Positions 10,489 through 61,543 of a DNA stretch of 64,000 bases are shown here, one piece after another; position 1 is the first letter of the stretch; every line of letters starts with the position of its first letter. The translations under genes were made by a program, and so were the position numbers. Below the pieces are notes generated by a model that ran no database searches, had not been told where the DNA came from, and saw nothing but the letters and a program-made list of their open reading frames with translations. Source of the DNA: a bacterium (lineage in GTDB: Bacteria; Babelota; Babeliae; Babelales; Babelaceae); NCBI GenBank assembly GCA_021827715.1, contig JAKAUO010000019.1, positions 3,290-67,289 on the forward strand, in the 5' to 3' direction.

Positions 10489-10791
10489 TTATGACTGCTT
10501 GATAATCACGGGTACAACAAAGTAATTATTTTCATGAACGCGCGCACTTTCTACAAGAGGTTGCGTGCATAAGAGCGCATGATCTTGACGAAAAACATTA
10601 ACCCAGGCTTCGCTTTCTTGAGCTGCGCCGGGCAGGCTGTCATGGTATTGCGCTGCTATACCTTTCAACCGAGAAGCGTATTCTAAAACCGCCTCTAAAC
10701 TTTGTCGCAAAGGCTCAACTTCGTCTGTTTCCAGTTTAATGCAGGAAAGCGTAGCTAATTTTAATAATTCTTCTTGCGTGATTAACGCCAT
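10489..10791 (-). CDS. gatC: amidotransferase subunit C
   Basis: About 100 aa, directly upstream of gatA. Begins MALITQEELLKLA and has a GatC-like FRQD motif. Start set at M6 of the ORF. Confidence 0.8.
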   Translation of the reverse strand: MALITQEELLKLATLSCIKLETDEVEPLRQSLEAVLEYASRLKGIAAQYHDSLPGAAQESEAWVNVFRQDHALLCTQPLVESARVHENNYFVVPVIIKQS

Positions 10792-12185
10792 GATAATTTC
10801 TTCCAATCTTCTGAACGGAACCGCATAAGATAAATAATACCCATGAGCCCGTTACCAATATAAAATGAACTATATACCAGAATAAACTTAATAAGCGTAT
10901 TTTCAAGAGGCAGCATCGATAAAAGGTATGAAACGGGCATGAAAAACGCAAGCAGCGAGATTAAACGCACCCACATTACCACCCGTACATTCGATGCACC
11001 GCGTAAAGCCGCCGCCAAAATAAGCTGCAAAATATCAAAAAATACCAGAACGCTAATAATAGGGAACGCCGTAGCAGCAAAATCAGTAAAAACCTGCTTA
11101 CTATCAAATAACCCGATAACCACCTGAGGCATAAGGGAAAAGAGACACAATATAGTAAGCACCATCACTGAACTTAAAAAAAGAACTTTTTTAATGGTAC
11201 TTTTAATACCTAACCAATTTTTACTTCCATAATCATTACTTACTAATAACGTCACCACCTGGGCAAAGGCAACTGCCGGAGCAAAGGCAAATTGTTCCAT
11301 GTCTTTTATTACATGAAAGGTTCCCATGGCAACTTTTCCTAAGGGGTTAATCAGGCTACACAACCACATTTTAGCAATGGCTAACGTGGCCTTATCAATC
11401 ATAACCGGAACACTCACTACAAAGATCTTGCCCATAAGGGTAATTACGTGCCTATTTAAAAAGGGCACCTCGTACAAGGTATGGTACCTGCTTATGAAGA
11501 GATATATAAGCCCGGAGATGCAAATTACCCCATATTGTATCACTGCTGCCCATGCCGAGCCCATAATACCTAATGGTGGAAAACCACATTTACCAAAAAT
11601 AAGAAGATAGTCGAGAATAACAAATAACGCCGCCCCGCCCAAAAAGAGATTCATGGGAACACGCGTATTTTTAACACCCCGCAAAAAACCAACGATTCCA
11701 TAACTTATAAACATACAAAAAATGCTTAAGCAGCGTACTTTTAAATAGGAAGTGCCGATAAGGACCAATCGGTCTGGCACCTGATACCATCTAAAAATAG
11801 CATGAGCACCAAAAAACAGCCCTAATGCAATAAGGCCGCCTACCATCATGGACACCCATAACGCGGCGCTCAAAGAATTACCCACATTTTTTTTATCATC
11901 CGCCCCATTATAATGGCCACACATAATAACGGCACCCACAGAAAGCCCTTCAGCTATTTTAGTAACCGTATGTAATAAGGTATAGGTCACGCCCAATGCG
12001 GTATATAAAGAGGTTGAATTAAGCTGCGCTATAAATTTCGCATCAAGAATATTGATCATTAAAACGAAAGCGGTAATCAGCTCAGGAAAAAAGAGTGCTA
12101 AAATAGTGGAATACGAATTACCGTTATCAGAATCTTTGATGCCAAAAAGATAACTTGAAAAAAGCGTTTGAGTTTGTTTTATCAT
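10782..12185 (-). CDS. MATE-family efflux transporter (about 12 TM)
   Basis: 467 aa and uniformly hydrophobic, with a MATE-like layout and size. Family call comes from topology and size only. Confidence 0.6.
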   Translation of the reverse strand: MIKQTQTLFSSYLFGIKDSDNGNSYSTILALFFPELITAFVLMINILDAKFIAQLNSTSLYTALGVTYTLLHTVTKIAEGLSVGAVIMCGHYNGADDKKNVGNSLSAALWVSMMVGGLIALGLFFGAHAIFRWYQVPDRLVLIGTSYLKVRCLSIFCMFISYGIVGFLRGVKNTRVPMNLFLGGAALFVILDYLLIFGKCGFPPLGIMGSAWAAVIQYGVICISGLIYLFISRYHTLYEVPFLNRHVITLMGKIFVVSVPVMIDKATLAIAKMWLCSLINPLGKVAMGTFHVIKDMEQFAFAPAVAFAQVVTLLVSNDYGSKNWLGIKSTIKKVLFLSSVMVLTILCLFSLMPQVVIGLFDSKQVFTDFAATAFPIISVLVFFDILQLILAAALRGASNVRVVMWVRLISLLAFFMPVSYLLSMLPLENTLIKFILVYSSFYIGNGLMGIIYLMRFRSEDWKKLSWR

Positions 12186-55300: not shown

Positions 55301-56461
55301 ATGTTTATACAGCGTGAAATTACCGATTATGTTATTAAATTTTCAGAATTTTTCCCTGTTTTAGCGATCCTCGGACCGAGACAATCAGGAAAAACTACCC
55401 TTGCCCAGCATATCTTCAAGAACTACCATTACATAAATCTTGAAAACTTAGATATACGGGAAGCGGCATTGCTCGATCCAAGGGGTTTTCTTGAAAAATT
55501 ATTACATTTCCCTGGGGTTATTATTGATGAATTTCAAAATGCGCCAACCCTTCTTTCTTATATGCAGGTTATTGTCGATCGCGAAAAACGACAAGGTTTT
55601 TTTATCCTGACCGGATCTCAAAATTTTCTCATGAATCAATCCATAAGCCAGTCACTTGCAGGCAGAGTTGGTATTCTCACCTTACTTCCTCTTTCAAATA
55701 GCGAAATTAAAAATGCAGGGCTCCAGGCAAAATTTAGTGAAAATGCCATTTTTAAGGGATGTTATCCCCGTATCTTTGAAAAAAATAAACTCGAACCGGA
55801 ATATGTATACCCATCTTACATTCAAACCTATATTGAACGAGACGTTCGATCCATTATAAAAGTGAGCGATCTTACCCTCTTTAAGAAATTTTTAGGTTTG
55901 TGCGCAGCACGTATAGGTCAACTTTTAAATATCTCTGCGCTCGCCACTGAATGTGGAATGAGCATGCAAACAGTTAATTCATGGCTTTCAATTTTACAAG
56001 CAAGCTATATCATATTTTTATTACAACCTTATCATAATAATTTTAATAAAAGGCTGGTAAAAAGTTCAAAGCTCTTTTTTTATGATACAGGTGTAGTATC
56101 ATCGCTGCTTGGTATCGAAACCGTTGAACAATTAGAACAACATTATCTGCGGGGTTCACTTTTTGAAAACTTCATTATTGCGGATATACAAAAGCAATTT
56201 TTTAATAGAGCAAAAAATCCTTCTATCTATTTTTGGCGAGACAGCCACGGCCATGAGGTTGATTGCATTATTGAGAAAGGGACAACTCTTATACCTATAG
56301 AGATCAAAGCAGGCATGACTTTCGATAAAAATTTTATTAAGGGCTTGACCTATTGGCAAGAACTTTCTGGGAAAACAAATGGTATGCTTATATACGGCGG
56401 AGATGAAGAATTGCATATTAAAGATTGCGATATTCAAGGTTGGAAGAACTTCAAAGTTTAA
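55301..56461 (+). CDS. AAA ATPase of the COG1373 type (AAA_14 + DUF4143-like)
   Basis: ILGPRQSGKTTLA, VIIDEFQ, C-terminal WRDSHGHEVDCIIE. Start set at ATG 55301 (GGGAGG RBS). Confidence 0.75.
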   Translation: MFIQREITDYVIKFSEFFPVLAILGPRQSGKTTLAQHIFKNYHYINLENLDIREAALLDPRGFLEKLLHFPGVIIDEFQNAPTLLSYMQVIVDREKRQGFFILTGSQNFLMNQSISQSLAGRVGILTLLPLSNSEIKNAGLQAKFSENAIFKGCYPRIFEKNKLEPEYVYPSYIQTYIERDVRSIIKVSDLTLFKKFLGLCAARIGQLLNISALATECGMSMQTVNSWLSILQASYIIFLLQPYHNNFNKRLVKSSKLFFYDTGVVSSLLGIETVEQLEQHYLRGSLFENFIIADIQKQFFNRAKNPSIYFWRDSHGHEVDCIIEKGTTLIPIEIKAGMTFDKNFIKGLTYWQELSGKTNGMLIYGGDEELHIKDCDIQGWKNFKV

Positions 56462-56495
56462 AAATTGCACAAAATTGCTATAATAAAAACATAAT

Positions 56496-56667
56496 GCGCC
56501 CGTAGCTCCCAGCCTACGCGCAAGGCTTCGGCGGGCAGGCAATTGGATAGTTCCTGAAATTCAAGTAAAATATAAACATACGCGCCCGTAGCTCCCAGCC
56601 TACGCGCAAGGCTTCGGCGGGCAGGCAATTGGATAGTTCCTGAAATTCAAGTAAAATATAAACATAC
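56496..56667 (+). repeat. perfect 86-bp tandem repeat x2, each unit a truncated tRNA-Arg 5' fragment split by a 32-nt GC-rich insert
   Basis: Unit: gcgcccgtagctc + ccagcctacgcgcaaggcttcggcgggcaggc + aattggatag + ttcctgaaattcaagtaaaatataaacatac. The intact tRNA starts at 56668 in the same phase. A TGcTATAAT extended -10 lies at 56476-56484. Confidence 0.9.
56629..56657 (+). promoter_or_regulatory. sigma70-like promoter for tRNA-Arg built from repeat-unit sequence
   Basis: TTGGAT (56629-56634), 17-nt spacer, TAAAAT (56652-56657). The tRNA 5' end lies 11 nt downstream. The same arrangement occurs in unit 1. Confidence 0.4.
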
Positions 56668-56744
56668 GCGCCCGTAGCTCAATTGGATAGAGTGCCGGAC
56701 TTCGAATCCGTAGGTTGCAGGTTCGAGCCCTGCCGGGCGCACCA
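56668..56744 (+). tRNA. tRNA-Arg (anticodon TCG), CCA encoded
   Basis: GCGCCCGTAGCTCAATTGGATAGAG...CTTCGAA...GGTTCGAGCCCTGCCGGGCGCACCA. Confidence 0.88.
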
Positions 56745-56821
56745 GCCTACGCCTGTGTAGGGCTACGGCTGGGTGAACCACGGCATAGCTGCATAGCAGC
56801 GACGACGGGCGGGCCAGTTTT
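56745..56821 (+). repeat. 76-77-nt GC-rich trailer after tRNA-Arg(TCG) (family 2)
   Basis: Identical to the reverse complement of 61393-61466 except for a 2-nt indel (ctgtgtaggg vs ctgtaggg). Ends in GGCCAGTTTTT. Confidence 0.85.
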
Positions 56822-56941
56822 TATCAGAAAAAGGTCACAATCAATTGTCTTATGATGAATGCATGAAGCTCATAAAAGATATTATTTCAATTGTTGAGCG
56901 AGCTATACGGAATAAGCCGCATACACCGGGATTTATTGTTG

Positions 56942-57298
56942 TTATCGTTTTGCAAGCTCGTTTTGAATTTTCAGCATAATCTGATTAATGCCTGCAAGCT
57001 TTGTCTTTGTTTCTTCGCGTAAAATAATAGTTGTATATTCGGTTTGGGTAAGCTTCTTTCGAGCTTTTTGTGCCACGTGGTGCGAACGTTGTAAAAAAAT
57101 TCTGCATTCATCATTTTTTTGCTCAAGGTGCATTAAACGTTCATGGAGCTCAAGTTCGTGAAGATTTTGTCTATAAGAGCGAAACTGCATGCCAGAAACC
57201 AAAAACTTTAAAAGTGATGGAGCTTTAGGAAAAATGGGCATCACCGAATGATGACAAAAAAATACACTTATAAGTGTAACAAGAATTCCTTTTTTCAT
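56942..57298 (-). CDS. hypothetical secreted/anchored coiled-coil protein (118 aa)
   Basis: N-terminal hydrophobic segment. No recognisable domain. Confidence 0.45.
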   Translation of the reverse strand: MKKGILVTLISVFFCHHSVMPIFPKAPSLLKFLVSGMQFRSYRQNLHELELHERLMHLEQKNDECRIFLQRSHHVAQKARKKLTQTEYTTIILREETKTKLAGINQIMLKIQNELAKR

Positions 57299-57468
57299 AA
57301 ACTCTCCTGGTGTAAAGCGCTACGTCCTTTTATAATCACTTTAGTATACAAAAGGCATTTTAGTTTTACTAGCAGATGTTAATACAAAAAAGCCATATGA
57401 GAAAAATTCTATATTTTAAAACATCTATATTTATATAATAAAAACAGGAGAACTAAGGAGAACGGACA

Positions 57469-58269
57469 ATGTTAAAACAATTTATTCTTACCCTATTGTG
57501 TTTATGTACTATACAAAACCTTTCAGCGGTCAGCAAAAAAGAGATTGAAACCATTGGTCAAAAAATTTGGCAGAATGAAGCAAAATGCGAAGAAGAACTT
57601 CTTGTATTTTGGAACAAAAATGAATCGTTCCCTTCATTGGGCATTGGCCATAATATCTGGTTTCCCGAAGGTTGGCTTACAAAAAATCCTGATGTGAGAT
57701 TTACAGAAAGTTTTCCCCTACTATGTAATTATTTAGAAAAAAATAAGGTGGTTCTTCCTGCTTGGTTAAAAAAAGCAAAAAATAGTGGCGCTCCCTGGAA
57801 ATCTCGTGAAGACTTTTATAAAGACGAACAACGGTTACAAGAATTACGGACTCTTTTGGTAAAAACTACCGCATTACAAGCTCATTATATGATCGACCGG
57901 CTTGAAGAAAAATTACCAAAAATTATAGAAAAAGCGCCTATCAGTCAACGAAAAAAAATAAGTAAAAATATTACTTTGATGCGATCAACGTTTTTAGGAA
58001 CCTACGCATTAGTCGATTATCTCAATTTTAAAGGCGATGGACTTAATTCAAGAGAAGCAACTAAAGGTCAAGGGTGGGGATTACTTGCCGTATTACTTGA
58101 TATGCCAGACAATCTGAATAAAAATAATGTAACGAAAGCGTTCACGGTATCAGCAGCAAAAAAACTTATAACCCGCATTGAAAATTCGGCACCCTATTAT
58201 GCACCTCTAGTGTTTTTTGAAGGCTGGATGAAACGAATAAGCACCTATAGTGAAGAAAAAGCATGTTAA
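57469..58269 (+). CDS. hypothetical secreted protein (266 aa), probably co-transcribed with the GH3 gene
   Basis: aaggag RBS and signal peptide. 20-nt overlap with the downstream GH3 gene. Confidence 0.5.
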   Translation: MLKQFILTLLCLCTIQNLSAVSKKEIETIGQKIWQNEAKCEEELLVFWNKNESFPSLGIGHNIWFPEGWLTKNPDVRFTESFPLLCNYLEKNKVVLPAWLKKAKNSGAPWKSREDFYKDEQRLQELRTLLVKTTALQAHYMIDRLEEKLPKIIEKAPISQRKKISKNITLMRSTFLGTYALVDYLNFKGDGLNSREATKGQGWGLLAVLLDMPDNLNKNNVTKAFTVSAAKKLITRIENSAPYYAPLVFFEGWMKRISTYSEEKAC

Positions 58270-59920
58270 AAAAAGTTTTTATTTTACTGCCTACTTTGCT
58301 ATAAGCACTCTTGTTGCACAGCAAGCACTAGATCCAGAAAAAACGCTTGAGCAATTAACACTGCGCGAAAAAATTGGTCAACTGTTTATGGTAGCTGCAG
58401 CATCAAATTTTAATGCGCCGACAGAACAACTTGCAAGCTTAATGCAAACATGCCCCTATACGATGGAACAGGACCATGTCATGAAAATGATCACCGACCA
58501 TCATGTTGGTGGCGTTATCTTTTTATATAAAAGTGATCCTATAACCCAAATGACACTTACCCAAAAATTTCAAGATGTTGCACAAGTACCGCTCCTTATA
58601 GCACAAGACAGCGAATGGGGCTTAAGTATGCGTTTGGATAATGATCCTACAAAAGTTGTCCGCTATCCTCGCGCTATGACACTCGGTGCTCTTCATGATA
58701 GACAAAAAATATATGATGTTGGCTATGAAATCGGGAAACAGTGTGCCGCTATTGGCGTACATATGAACCTAGCACCCGTTGCTGATATCAACAATAATAG
58801 ACGGAACCCTGTCATACATGATCGTTCTTTTGGTAACAATCCATTAAAAGTCGCCCAGAGAGCAGCACTTTTTGCTAAGGGATTACAAGATGCTGGTGTT
58901 CTTGCGTGTGCAAAACATTTTCCTGGGCACGGTGACACAGAAGTTGATTCACATCTGGATTTGCCGGTTATTAAACATAATCGCGAACGTTTTAAAACAA
59001 CTGAGTTACTACCCTTTCAACACGTGGCGCATCAACGCATTGATGCAATTATGCATGCACATATTTGTGTGCCTGCACTCGATGCAACAGGAAAACCATC
59101 AAGCCTATCGTACCCTATTGTTACCGGACTTCTTAAAAAAGAACTTAACTTTAATGGTCTTTCCATTACTGATGGTCTAGGTATGGATGCTGTGCGCAAA
59201 AATTATGCATCAGGTCAACTTGAACTTGAAGCATTTTTAGCAGGCAATGATTTGTTGCTTTGTCCACTTGATGTTCCCCAAGCCATGCAGAACATTGAAC
59301 AAGCTATTACCCATGGCGACGTTGATGAAGATGACCTAAATCAACGTGTACTTAAAATATTAAAAGCCAAAGCACGAGCTTTTGCACAGAGCAAAGCTTA
59401 CTTTTTTCAAGAAGCGCAAGCTTATCTTATACGTCCGCAGGCGTATGAACTTCAAAAAGATTTGTATCGCTCTGCCATTACATTGCTTACCTATAATAAT
59501 CAACTCCATTTTGATACCAACTTTTTTGATGAAAGCTGTATCATTCAAATAGGCGCACTCCCCGAAGACTATTTCAAAAATAGTTGCAGACACTATGGCA
59601 AAAAAGTTATTACCGGCTCAGTTTTACCTGAAGCTGCAGCAGATCATGATACGGTTGTTATTGCCATTGGCGACATGAATAAATTTGTTGATAAACAATT
59701 CGGTATTACTGACACACTGCTTGATGACATCAAACAATTAAAGAAAATTGGTAAAAAAGTTATTGTAGCTCTTTTTGGTACGCCGTATAGCATTCCCTTA
59801 TTTAAAGATGTCGATGCAATTATTGAAGCATATGAAGATGTACCGGTAGCCCAAGAGGCAGTTGTTGATACACTTCGTGGCATACTCAAACCAACAGGGA
59901 CATTGCCGATAATGCTTTAA
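58250..59920 (+). CDS. secreted glycoside hydrolase family 3 (NagZ-like beta-N-acetylhexosaminidase) with a C-terminal alpha/beta domain
   Basis: KHFPGHGDTEVDSHLDLP, SDSEWGL-like AQDSEWGL, ITDGLGM. GTG start and signal peptide. Confidence 0.85.
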   Translation: MKKKHVKKSFYFTAYFAISTLVAQQALDPEKTLEQLTLREKIGQLFMVAAASNFNAPTEQLASLMQTCPYTMEQDHVMKMITDHHVGGVIFLYKSDPITQMTLTQKFQDVAQVPLLIAQDSEWGLSMRLDNDPTKVVRYPRAMTLGALHDRQKIYDVGYEIGKQCAAIGVHMNLAPVADINNNRRNPVIHDRSFGNNPLKVAQRAALFAKGLQDAGVLACAKHFPGHGDTEVDSHLDLPVIKHNRERFKTTELLPFQHVAHQRIDAIMHAHICVPALDATGKPSSLSYPIVTGLLKKELNFNGLSITDGLGMDAVRKNYASGQLELEAFLAGNDLLLCPLDVPQAMQNIEQAITHGDVDEDDLNQRVLKILKAKARAFAQSKAYFFQEAQAYLIRPQAYELQKDLYRSAITLLTYNNQLHFDTNFFDESCIIQIGALPEDYFKNSCRHYGKKVITGSVLPEAAADHDTVVIAIGDMNKFVDKQFGITDTLLDDIKQLKKIGKKVIVALFGTPYSIPLFKDVDAIIEAYEDVPVAQEAVVDTLRGILKPTGTLPIML

Positions 59921-59921
59921 T

Positions 59922-61316
59922 TTATGAGATCATTTCATCAAGTAGCGGGTCAAGGTAGCGCAGGAGCGACTTCGCTCTATTGTGCCATATGCCCTCTTTT
60001 TTAAGATGCAGCAGCTGCTTTACTTCACGTGCATATCTTGCAGTATCGCCACCAAAAGTTGTTATATATTCGCGAATGAAGGGCTCATAAAAATCATTAA
60101 ACCATTTCCGGGTATCAACCTTTTTTGTTCTGATATTGGTTTCAAATATCAAGTTCCAGGGGAAGCCAAAAAAGGGAAATAGCAAAAGATAGCCTAAATC
60201 GATTGCCGGGCTCATAGGGCGCAAGATAGATTTACCCAACCGATCCAGATCTATCCAATATACACGATCTGTCAGTTCATCGTAGAAAATATTTTTTGGA
60301 TGCAAATCGCCATGCACCATGGTCATCCCCAAAAGAGAGCTGCTATCTGGCTTACCCTGTTCATTTTTCATAAACGCTTTATGAAAGTTCGCCAGAGTTT
60401 TTGCGCTCGCAGTATATGCTTTTTGTAATCGCATTTTATTACTATCTGACGGGTTATCTTTATAGGCATTCATATACGAATAAAGATCTGATCCAGAAGC
60501 CTTGGGTGTTATGGTAATAATATGTTTTCTTCGCCAACGGTAATACTCTAAGGTTGCAACCGGTAATGCCAGTATAGGAAAATCAGCCATGTAAGCGGGT
60601 GCGCTATATTTTTTTAATGGGTTGTATCGTGCTGCAATCGCTACATTAAATGCCTCATTTTTTCCCTTTGCAAGATCTTTGATAATATATTCTTGGCCCG
60701 TCTTTTGATTTTTAACCAAAAACAATTGCTTGGTTGCCATGCCGCCTTCTTCAGACTTTTTTCCCACAGGATGCAGGTTACGTATTTCAAGTTCCTCGAT
60801 ATGCTCAAATGCAGGGTCAACTATTTTTCCCGTGCTATAGGCCCGCGCTAAAAATGATTGTATCCCTTTATCAGAAAATTTTCCTCTATATGTCTCTTGG
60901 GGAGACACATAGACGCGCTTAATGATTTTATATTTATCATACACAGCAGCAACAAAATCATCGTCAGACTTACTGGATAGACCGCCTGCCGCTTTTAGTG
61001 CTAGAAGAGCATCATGAGTACATTCTTTTTTATCAAGGCAGGTGCGTATAATATCCTGTCCGCTTACTTTTGTATCAGTAATTTTATCAGACTCCTGGAC
61101 AATACAACAGGTACAGGCCGGCTCTATTTGGTTATCCCATGCTGATAAAGCACATGATTCAGAATCTGATACATCGCGTATCTCTTTAATAATCCCAGCA
61201 TCATCATTGAGCACCATAGGCCTATAAGCACCCATAAAACCTTTTTTAAGCATGCTGTAATCATCGGCATATACAAAAAATGGCAGCGCATATGCGCAAT
61301 AGAGCAGTATGATCAT
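59922..61316 (-). CDS. secreted kinase-fold protein (APH/choline-kinase-like)
   Basis: Signal peptide. QEYIIKDL (Lys). MVHGDLHPKNIFYD...VYWIDLDRLG is the Brenner-type HGDxHxxN...IDxD motif. Confidence 0.65.
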   Translation of the reverse strand: MIILLYCAYALPFFVYADDYSMLKKGFMGAYRPMVLNDDAGIIKEIRDVSDSESCALSAWDNQIEPACTCCIVQESDKITDTKVSGQDIIRTCLDKKECTHDALLALKAAGGLSSKSDDDFVAAVYDKYKIIKRVYVSPQETYRGKFSDKGIQSFLARAYSTGKIVDPAFEHIEELEIRNLHPVGKKSEEGGMATKQLFLVKNQKTGQEYIIKDLAKGKNEAFNVAIAARYNPLKKYSAPAYMADFPILALPVATLEYYRWRRKHIITITPKASGSDLYSYMNAYKDNPSDSNKMRLQKAYTASAKTLANFHKAFMKNEQGKPDSSSLLGMTMVHGDLHPKNIFYDELTDRVYWIDLDRLGKSILRPMSPAIDLGYLLLFPFFGFPWNLIFETNIRTKKVDTRKWFNDFYEPFIREYITTFGGDTARYAREVKQLLHLKKEGIWHNRAKSLLRYLDPLLDEMIS

Positions 61317-61392
61317 AATCTTTTCCCATCCAGTCTATAAATAAAGGTATATCGCATTCACTATAGCAAAACAAAAAGGAACATTGGTATAA

Positions 61393-61466
61393 AAACTGGC
61401 CCGCCCGTCGTCGCTGCTATGCAGCTATGCCGTGGTTCACCCAGCCGTAGCCCTACAGGCGTAGGC
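61393..61466 (-). repeat. 74-nt GC-rich trailer after tRNA-Arg(CCT) (family 2)
   Basis: Reverse complement matches 56745-56821. Confidence 0.85.
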
Positions 61467-61543
61467 TGGTGCGCCCGACTGGAATCGAACCAGTGGCCTA
61501 CAGTTTAGGAAACTATCGCTCTATCCTACTGAGCTACGGGCGC
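61467..61543 (-). tRNA. tRNA-Arg (anticodon CCT), CCA encoded
   Basis: Reverse complement reads GCGCCCGTAGCTCAGTAGGATAGAGC...TTCCTAA...GGTTCGATTCCAGTCGGGCGCACCA. The 5' end lies 2 nt downstream of the tlyA stop. Confidence 0.88.

Follow-up and report, generated by a model that had tools for sequence, protein, structure and literature searches.

Organization of the array

The window (the whole 64,000-nt stretch of DNA analyzed here) contains two adjacent 86-nt units on the forward strand, at positions 56496-56581 and 56582-56667, followed immediately by an intact tRNA-Arg(TCG) gene at 56668-56744 that was identified by both ARAGORN and Rfam. A direct string comparison found the two units to be 100% identical, and TRF reported a period of 86, 2.3 copies and a score of 375 at the array. 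The perfect periodicity covers positions 56496-56680, corresponding to two units and a further 13 nt, and the intact tRNA gene begins exactly one period after unit 2. Both the perfect pair of 86-bp units and the phasing of the tRNA gene had been proposed in an initial annotation of this DNA and were borne out. The array is placed in the middle of a 70.9-kb contig, 2.2 kb from dnaA, in a metagenome-assembled genome of 54 contigs (1.0 Mb, 38.5% GC, 94% complete). According to Pfam, the flanking open reading frames encode a DUF4143 ATPase, two proteins without a Pfam match, a GH3 hydrolase and others.

As first parsed, each unit consists of the 13-nt tRNA 5' end (GCGCCCGTAGCTC), a 32-nt GC-rich insert, the segment AATTGGATAG and a 31-nt AT-rich tail. 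All of these parts are present, but comparison with relatives shifts the boundaries of the first three from 13 + 32 + 10 to 12 + 32 + 11, that is 12 nt of tRNA, a 32-nt element of the form CCCAGCC...CAGG and the segment CAATTGGATAG. In unit 1, the copy of tRNA-Arg(TCG) positions 1-12 (GCGCCCGTAGCT) occupies 56496-56507, and the hairpin element, referred to here as E, occupies 56508-56539 with the arrangement CCC(A)GCC / TAC / GCGCAAGGC / TTC / GGCGGG / CAGG, an assignment supported by a covariance model and by solo copies in relatives. It is followed by a copy of tRNA positions 13-23 (56540-56550), which comprises the end of the D stem and the D loop, and by the AT-rich tail (56551-56581), a tRNA leader/promoter region homologous to the stub tail of the relative G001 and to the leader of the genome's own tRNA-Arg(ACG) gene. 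The corresponding four parts of unit 2 occupy 56582-56593, 56594-56625, 56626-56636 and 56637-56667, also on the forward strand.

Upstream of unit 1 lies a promoter-like site on the forward strand, TTTAAA-16-TATAAT with a TG (56457-56484), which is homologous to a promoter in G001. Downstream, the trailer of the tRNA-Arg(TCG) gene (56742-56821, forward strand) consists of a CCA-type E hairpin at 56742-56772, approximately 45 nt of further sequence and a T run, and the basal helix of this hairpin uses the tRNA's own CCA. The window contains a second tRNA-Arg gene, tRNA-Arg(CCT), at 61467-61543 on the reverse strand; with its near-identical trailer, the inverted partner of the TCG trailer, it covers 61393-61543. 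The sequence CCAGCCTACGC has only four copies in the 1.0-Mb assembly, two of them in the units and two at the 3' side of these two tRNA-Arg genes.

The units do not qualify as functional tRNAs as positions 1-23 are present and positions 24-76 are absent, and the ARAGORN and Rfam calls at the array were limited to 56668-56744 with none falling on the units. When a permissive Rfam threshold was used, the only matches beyond the two tRNAs of the window were weak antisense ones to RF04354, a plastid leader model, located on the complementary strand of these two tRNA-Arg genes. Thermodynamic folding of the whole unit was no better than that of shuffled sequences (z = -0.11), so that structural support comes from covariation only; the folding of unit and trailer as a set gave no signal (z = -0.11, +0.63 and -0.55).

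Conceivably the exact doubling of a real stub was made or miscounted by the assembler. The genome is assembled from a metagenome into 54 contigs, the copy number of a perfect short tandem repeat is difficult to establish from short reads, and an exact search of public metagenome contigs, which may leave out records close to this genome, found no match to the 86-nt unit. We nevertheless consider an artefact of this kind quite unlikely, as assemblers tend to collapse repeats rather than expand them, the array is interior to its contig, and the relatives G001, G124, G170 and G163 provide independent cases of at least two stubs in tandem. Furthermore, the periodic stretch is only 185 nt long, so k-mers or reads of at least 100 nt resolve the array uniquely.

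The insert is a member of a genome-wide hairpin family

Examination of the flanks of all 35 tRNA genes showed that nearly each of them, as well as the tmRNA gene, is directly followed at its CCA by a copy of E. The design of these hairpins is uniform. A 6-bp outer stem is formed by CCA and three further bases, which pair with three bases and TGG; it is followed by a symmetric 3x3 internal loop (TNC/TNC) and an inner GC stem of variable length, and the element ends in the tail CAGG, then CCA. A covariance model (R1) was built from fourteen other tRNA and tmRNA trailers of the genome, with the unit inserts left out of the training set. In the R1 alignment 91.8% of the cells are paired and six pairs are changed on both sides, and none of 500 shuffles was as good. 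The unit inserts match R1 over its full length (model positions 1-33) at 56509-56542 and 56595-56628, with 33.3 bits and E=2.4e-5, and are the best R1 matches of the window after one training sequence. The full-length match makes the insert a regular member of family E, a tRNA-trailer hairpin family that is not private to the two Arg trailers.

The tie between the insert and the tRNA trailers had been recognized in the initial annotation, and the link now extends to most tRNA genes and to the tmRNA gene. In the units, E follows position 12 of the stub and is not attached to the CCA of any complete tRNA or tmRNA gene. Solo and nested copies of E also occur, and family E is thus not confined to CCA ends. 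The copies in the units have CCC...GGG as their outermost triplet, and solo copies 94-97% identical to them were found in G001 and in G012, a member of another genus. Solo copies of the same CCC...GGG subtype, with no adjoining tRNA, were also observed in the window itself at 10603-10639 (forward strand) and on contig C11 of this genome at 11414-11446 (reverse strand). The hairpin of the tRNA-Asn trailer (C33:4086-4150) is in tandem, with two identical 31-nt copies and the start of a third.

The number of E copies was 29 in this genome and ranged from 0 to 47 across about 40 relatives, with none in twelve of them including the congener G003. A strict structural regular expression for E gave 46 matches in this genome against 22 in shuffled sequence, and only about 21 of the matches, the short GC-rich ones, are real. 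E behaves like a mobile, selfish repeat, as suggested by its patchiness, by the nearly identical solo copies in another genus and by the nested copies. The literature that we searched on Dependentiae tRNA repeats, on GIY-YIG genes at tRNA genes and on hairpins 3' of tRNA genes gave no account of E, and neither CCA-fused hairpins nor an insertion between D-stem positions 12 and 13 (hereafter 12/13) in 5' stubs was found described there.

The same scar recurs across the order

The arrangement seen in the units, in which tRNA bases 1-12 are followed by E, by the bases from 13 onward, by an AT-rich leader and then by the cognate intact tRNA, was found in at least 22 genomes of the order. A BLAST search of the locus against 40 relatives showed similarity reaching beyond the tRNA in several genomes. 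The scar precedes tRNA-Arg genes of all four anticodons, namely ACG (G004 and G001), TCG (G001, with two different units), CCT (G002) and TCT (G020 and G029). The junction pattern GYGCCYRTAGCTYCC, in which tRNA positions 1-12 are joined to YCC, was found in 28 of the 261 genomes of the order, representing 20 genera, while the reversed control gave two matches; at least four chance matches in collagen-like coding repeats (G006, G194:C2, G218 and G247) were discarded. When the acceptor 7-mer was left free, the junction search returned 41 matches against eight in the control, about half of them Arg. Stubs of His, Met, Ala and Val tRNAs were also found, each before its own tRNA, with Arg being the commonest in strong excess.

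About thirty cases could be parsed cleanly, and these follow the pattern tRNA(1-12) / TCCNNN / TNC / hairpin / TNC / N'N'N'GGA / CAGG / CA..., most of them lying just upstream of the cognate intact tRNA. The variable triplets of the scar covary (GCC/GGC, TGC/GCA, ACC/GGT, GTC/GAC, TAC/GTA, GGC/GCC and TCC/GGA), and the comparison of these cases places the insertion of E between T12 and C13 of the D stem. The junction surveys imposed the 12/13 boundary in the search pattern and are hence biased to that site. When short TCC-type copies of E were collected without this constraint (34 copies from 141 genomes, with no matches in the control), their 5' flanks proved to be varied; nine of the 34 flanks end in CT, including those of nested insertions that follow GGCT inside another E. 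The preference for AGCT on the 5' side is therefore a tendency and not a rule. Among the origins that had been considered at first, an element targeting the D loop is the one that the comparative data support, with the D-stem 12/13 insertion recurring in many genomes of the order.

Two unusual stubs were observed in the course of these searches. In G210 (locus L090), a chimeric stub with an Ala-type 5' 12-mer (GGGGATGTAGCT), E and an Arg-type D loop (CAATTGGAAA) lies before tRNA-Arg(ACG). In the genome under study, GTGCCCCAGCTGGAAGACCAGCTTCGCACCA is positioned upstream of tRNA-Arg(TCT) on contig C7 (9183-9234) and looks like a heavily deleted mini copy of tRNA-Arg(TCT) comprising the 5' acceptor strand, the D loop and the 3' end with CCA.

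Abortive integration or excision had also been proposed, and one form of this origin would make the units att-type scars left by an integrase-bearing element that repeatedly entered and left the tRNA gene. There is a resemblance to classical tRNA integration sites in that foreign DNA is enclosed by direct repeats of part of the tRNA and the intact tRNA is kept. The repeated tRNA pieces are 12-13 nt and 11 nt long in the units, and in relatives the repeats are 13-37 nt long and run into host upstream sequence. This origin is very unlikely, however, since the duplicated part is the 5' end together with host-specific upstream sequence, the inserted DNA is a mere 32-nt member of a dispersed hairpin family, and scars of this type are found at many tRNAs of different kinds, their repeats ranging from 13 to 37 nt. 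The Pfam scan found no integrase or recombinase among the flanking open reading frames, and the proposal was not upheld.

A further reading takes E to be an intervening sequence that is removed from the RNA, or takes the units to be small RNAs with a function of their own, for example as decoys for enzymes that bind tRNA. The covariation of the E stem and the orientation of E, which is always sense to the tRNA in stubs, would agree with this, as would the tRNA-Ala(GGC) of G194, which is complete apart from an E at 12/13 and has no intact second copy. In a pattern search of 261 genomes, however, this was the single E-bearing tRNA of otherwise full length. The remaining copies with E are either truncated or disrupted at several points, and the majority adjoin an intact copy, the units themselves have no tRNA positions 24-76, and no Rfam family matches them; we regard the reading as exceedingly improbable. 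Removal of E from the RNA would make such genes common with no need of an intact neighbour, and the insertion is for this reason read as inactivating. A tRNA intron, either group I or protein-spliced, was considered as well and rejected, given the truncation of the units, the lone full-length case in 261 genomes and the lack of any Rfam intron match.

The G194 gene (contig C1:209192-209298; loci L089 and L103) is broken only by a 31-nt E and is not called by ARAGORN. The G194 genome is 91% complete, and no intact second tRNA-Ala(GGC) was found in it. An organism that has tRNA-Ala(UGC) can plausibly do without tRNA-Ala(GGC).

Variation of the upstream copies among relatives

The upstream tRNA copies differ widely in the extent to which they are preserved. 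In G148, a 25-nt upstream direct repeat accompanies a pseudo-tRNA-Arg that reaches the 3' acceptor strand and carries three insertions. Unit 2 of G001 retains tRNA positions to about 49, also with three insertions, and most of the stubs reach no further than positions 18-27. E is bordered directly, in G029 (His) and G170 (Arg), by direct repeats of 35-37 nt that combine upstream sequence with positions 1-12. The copies appear from this comparison to be a decay series and not a conserved device. The G148 locus (contig C60, locus L062) is a tandem tRNA-Arg(TCG) array in which only the middle copy is intact; its upstream copy has hairpin insertions in the D stem, the anticodon loop and the T arm, and a further fragment lies 3' of the intact gene.

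The stubs are also patchy between orthologous loci. At the TCG locus, the two units of the genome under study are identical and the two of G001 differ from each other; the copy in G002 is disrupted in another way, and no unit is present in G003 or G005. At the ACG locus a stub is present in G001 and G004 and absent from G002 and G003, and the genome under study retains only E remnants, ATTGGACAG and a tail. Genomes with no E showed no stub, and the congener G003 is without any E. The comparison of unit copy number among relatives that had been suggested at the outset thus gave two units, different units, a disrupted copy or none, even within the genus.

Promoter-like sequences in the array

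Promoter-like hexamers were found at the consensus level upstream of unit 1 (TTTAAA-16-TG.TATAAT, 56457-56484) and in each unit (TGGATA-16-TAAAAT), in agreement with what had been noted from the sequence earlier. The hexamer scan returned six sites against 1.0 +/- 0.9 in shuffled sequences. Spacing within the sigma-70 range (16-18 nt) was observed at 56457-56484, 56544-56571 and 56630-56657, all of these being matches to the consensus only. The TAAAAT at 56566-56571 ends 10 nt before unit 2, and the site in unit 2 likewise ends 10 nt before the tRNA. Transcripts could therefore start at three predicted places.

These sites raise the reading that the array is a selected regulatory device, in which three tandem promoters or a structured leader mimicking the tRNA 5' end would raise or tune the expression or processing of tRNA-Arg(UCG). 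The position of the hexamers 10 nt before the next unit or tRNA and the extended -10 element upstream of unit 1 would suit such a role. A leader module is common to the TCG and ACG loci, and in different species the 5' 12-mer of each stub agrees with that of its own tRNA (A7 at ACG loci, T6 at the TCG locus of G001), although recurrent duplication or gene conversion would lead to the same agreement. Against a selected function, the stubs are present or absent at orthologous loci of congeneric genomes, their content and truncation points vary, and the tail is only 20-27 nt in several relatives, too short for a promoter. In addition, tRNA-Arg(UCG) reads codons that are rare in this genome (CGA 4.6 and CGG 3.7 per 1000). 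A regulatory device therefore seems unlikely. The promoter-multiplying duplication envisaged in the initial annotation may hold as a side effect of the array, but it shows no sign of selection and is gained or lost between congeners.

Comparison with known systems and candidate agents of mobility

By analogy, the closest known kinds appear to be REP/REPIN-type palindromic repeats and the partial tRNA duplications at integration sites, with the rtT repeats as a looser analogue. Like REP, BIME and REPIN sequences, E is a short GC-rich hairpin with covarying stems and a short conserved tail, and its copies are dispersed, nested or in tandem, and patchy between close relatives. Unlike in REP/RAYT systems, no RAYT/IS200 (Y1) transposase accompanies it, as a search for PF01797, which was positive in control genomes, had no match in this assembly (94% complete). 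Most E copies also differ from REP sequences in being joined directly to the CCA end of a tRNA or tmRNA gene, whose CCA contributes to the basal helix, and E inserts inside tRNA copies at D-stem 12/13 as well. No REPIN-type inverted pairs were seen. A tetranucleotide comparable to the 5' foot of REP sequences (for example GTAG) might be sought in the (G/A)TAGCT that precedes E in stubs, but this is the tRNA's own sequence and the flanks of solo copies are varied.

The attL/attR type of partial tRNA duplication resembles the units in that a piece of tRNA is repeated on either side of an insert and one intact tRNA survives, whereas the units repeat the 5' end and not the 3' end, include host upstream sequence of variable length, and contain a 32-nt insert with no integrase. 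The rtT RNA (Rfam RF00391) is encoded by the trailer repeats of E. coli tyrT/tyrV, which are tandem units downstream of a tRNA, each with a tRNA 3' end. The units described here are similarly in tandem, adjoin an intact tRNA and carry a short copy of one tRNA end, but they are located on the 5' side of the gene, copy its 5' end, are interrupted by a dispersed hairpin and have no Rfam match. MITE-like palindromes such as the RPE of Rickettsia and the Correia elements of Neisseria are, like E, small non-coding insertions that can be nested, occur in varied contexts and are tolerated where harmless; E is much smaller (about 30 nt), does not have transposon-type terminal inverted repeats and is tied to tRNA genes.

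A candidate source of mobility was found in GIY-YIG genes. An 80-aa GIY-YIG protein (PF01541, E=9e-16) is encoded in the genome by two intact genes, and a third copy survives as a fragment; all three immediately follow a tRNA gene. The intact genes lie behind tRNA-Phe (C34:2764-3250) and tRNA-Leu(TAA) (C20:1-620), and the decayed fragment lies behind tRNA-Asp (C33:4453-4536). Past each intact gene come an inverted TCC-type E and, after it, a 23-nt repeat of the 3' end of the tRNA, beginning in the T loop and accompanied by a second copy of the trailer. The GIY-YIG genes are in this way linked to E only circumstantially. One report describes SegB, a phage T4-type free-standing GIY-YIG homing endonuclease, as driving segmental amplification (PMC13096335). 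The genome resembles such systems in having GIY-YIG genes at tRNA genes, and breaks made by the nuclease could explain local duplications, which makes a nuclease-driven origin of the breaks and duplications plausible. The array differs in that no GIY-YIG gene is present at its locus, and the connection to the D-arm insertion is one that we infer.

As a tentative model, E might be a site-preferring mobile element of the Babeliales that is perhaps moved in trans by the 80-aa GIY-YIG nucleases and homes to the most conserved words in the DNA of tRNA genes, namely the CCA end and the D-stem sequence AGCT/CA. Breaks and insertions would then continually make stubs and arrays, which might subsequently act as landing pads where insertion does no harm, or as decoys, so that the working gene is spared.

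The odd local repeat is an instance of an order-wide pattern in which a tRNA-tied hairpin marks partial 5' tRNA copies at one position, and the main interest lies in family E rather than in the local array. If E is truly mobile and tRNA-directed, it would offer a compact model of selfish repeats that exploit universally conserved gene sequences, of the origin of tRNA pseudo-copies and tandem arrays in reduced genomes, and of disrupted tRNA genes that are overlooked by annotation pipelines.

Proposed history of the units

The two units are probably non-functional 5' stubs of tRNA-Arg(TCG) with their leader, split at 12/13 by E and doubled very recently. As far as sequence comparison goes, the array is the footprint of a selfish repeat family and not a new gene. 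The tail of the unit agrees with the tail of the first stub of G001 at 34 of 42 positions and with the leader of the genome's own tRNA-Arg(ACG) at 30 of 41. In G001, homologues of the promoter-like sequence upstream of unit 1 are found before the stub array and again before the intact tRNA.

The history may have begun with a partial tandem duplication of the promoter and the tRNA 5' end, possibly through break repair at the tRNA gene. E would then have landed after AGCT (position 12) in the dispensable copy, where it could be kept because the same insertion in the working copy would be lethal. The resulting module of stub, E and tail would have been passed on within the genus and shuffled between its Arg loci. 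A final doubling, which the complete identity of the two units dates as very recent, would have taken place in this genome by slippage or unequal recombination at the tRNA pieces of 12 nt and 11 nt, which are present more than once. In a G001-like ancestor, the promoter would have been followed by a stub, a tail, a second stub, another promoter and the tRNA, and recombination between the repeated 5' pieces might have converted this order into the present arrangement. Whether the duplication or the insertion came first is inferred, and several of the steps draw on a handful of loci.

RNase P trims a leader that is added by an upstream start during tRNA processing. If the units are transcribed, they would form such an extra leader, to be removed by RNase P at the true 5' end of the tRNA, and additional promoter activity, if any, would be a by-product. 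For the organism, the two units are probably neutral.

Arrangement of the two tRNA-Arg genes

The tRNA-Arg(TCG) and tRNA-Arg(CCT) genes are in tandem in G008 and G032, and the pair in G008 lies directly downstream of a gene whose end resembles a TlyA/FtsJ-type methyltransferase. The TCG gene follows the same TlyA/FtsJ-type gene in G002, G003 and G005, and lies behind the DUF4143 ATPase gene in the genome under study and in G001. In the latter two genomes it converges on the CCT gene across 4.6 kb (56668-61543 in the window), with the two near-identical 76-nt trailers forming inverted repeats. This arrangement suggests an inversion or transposition through the two Arg trailers.
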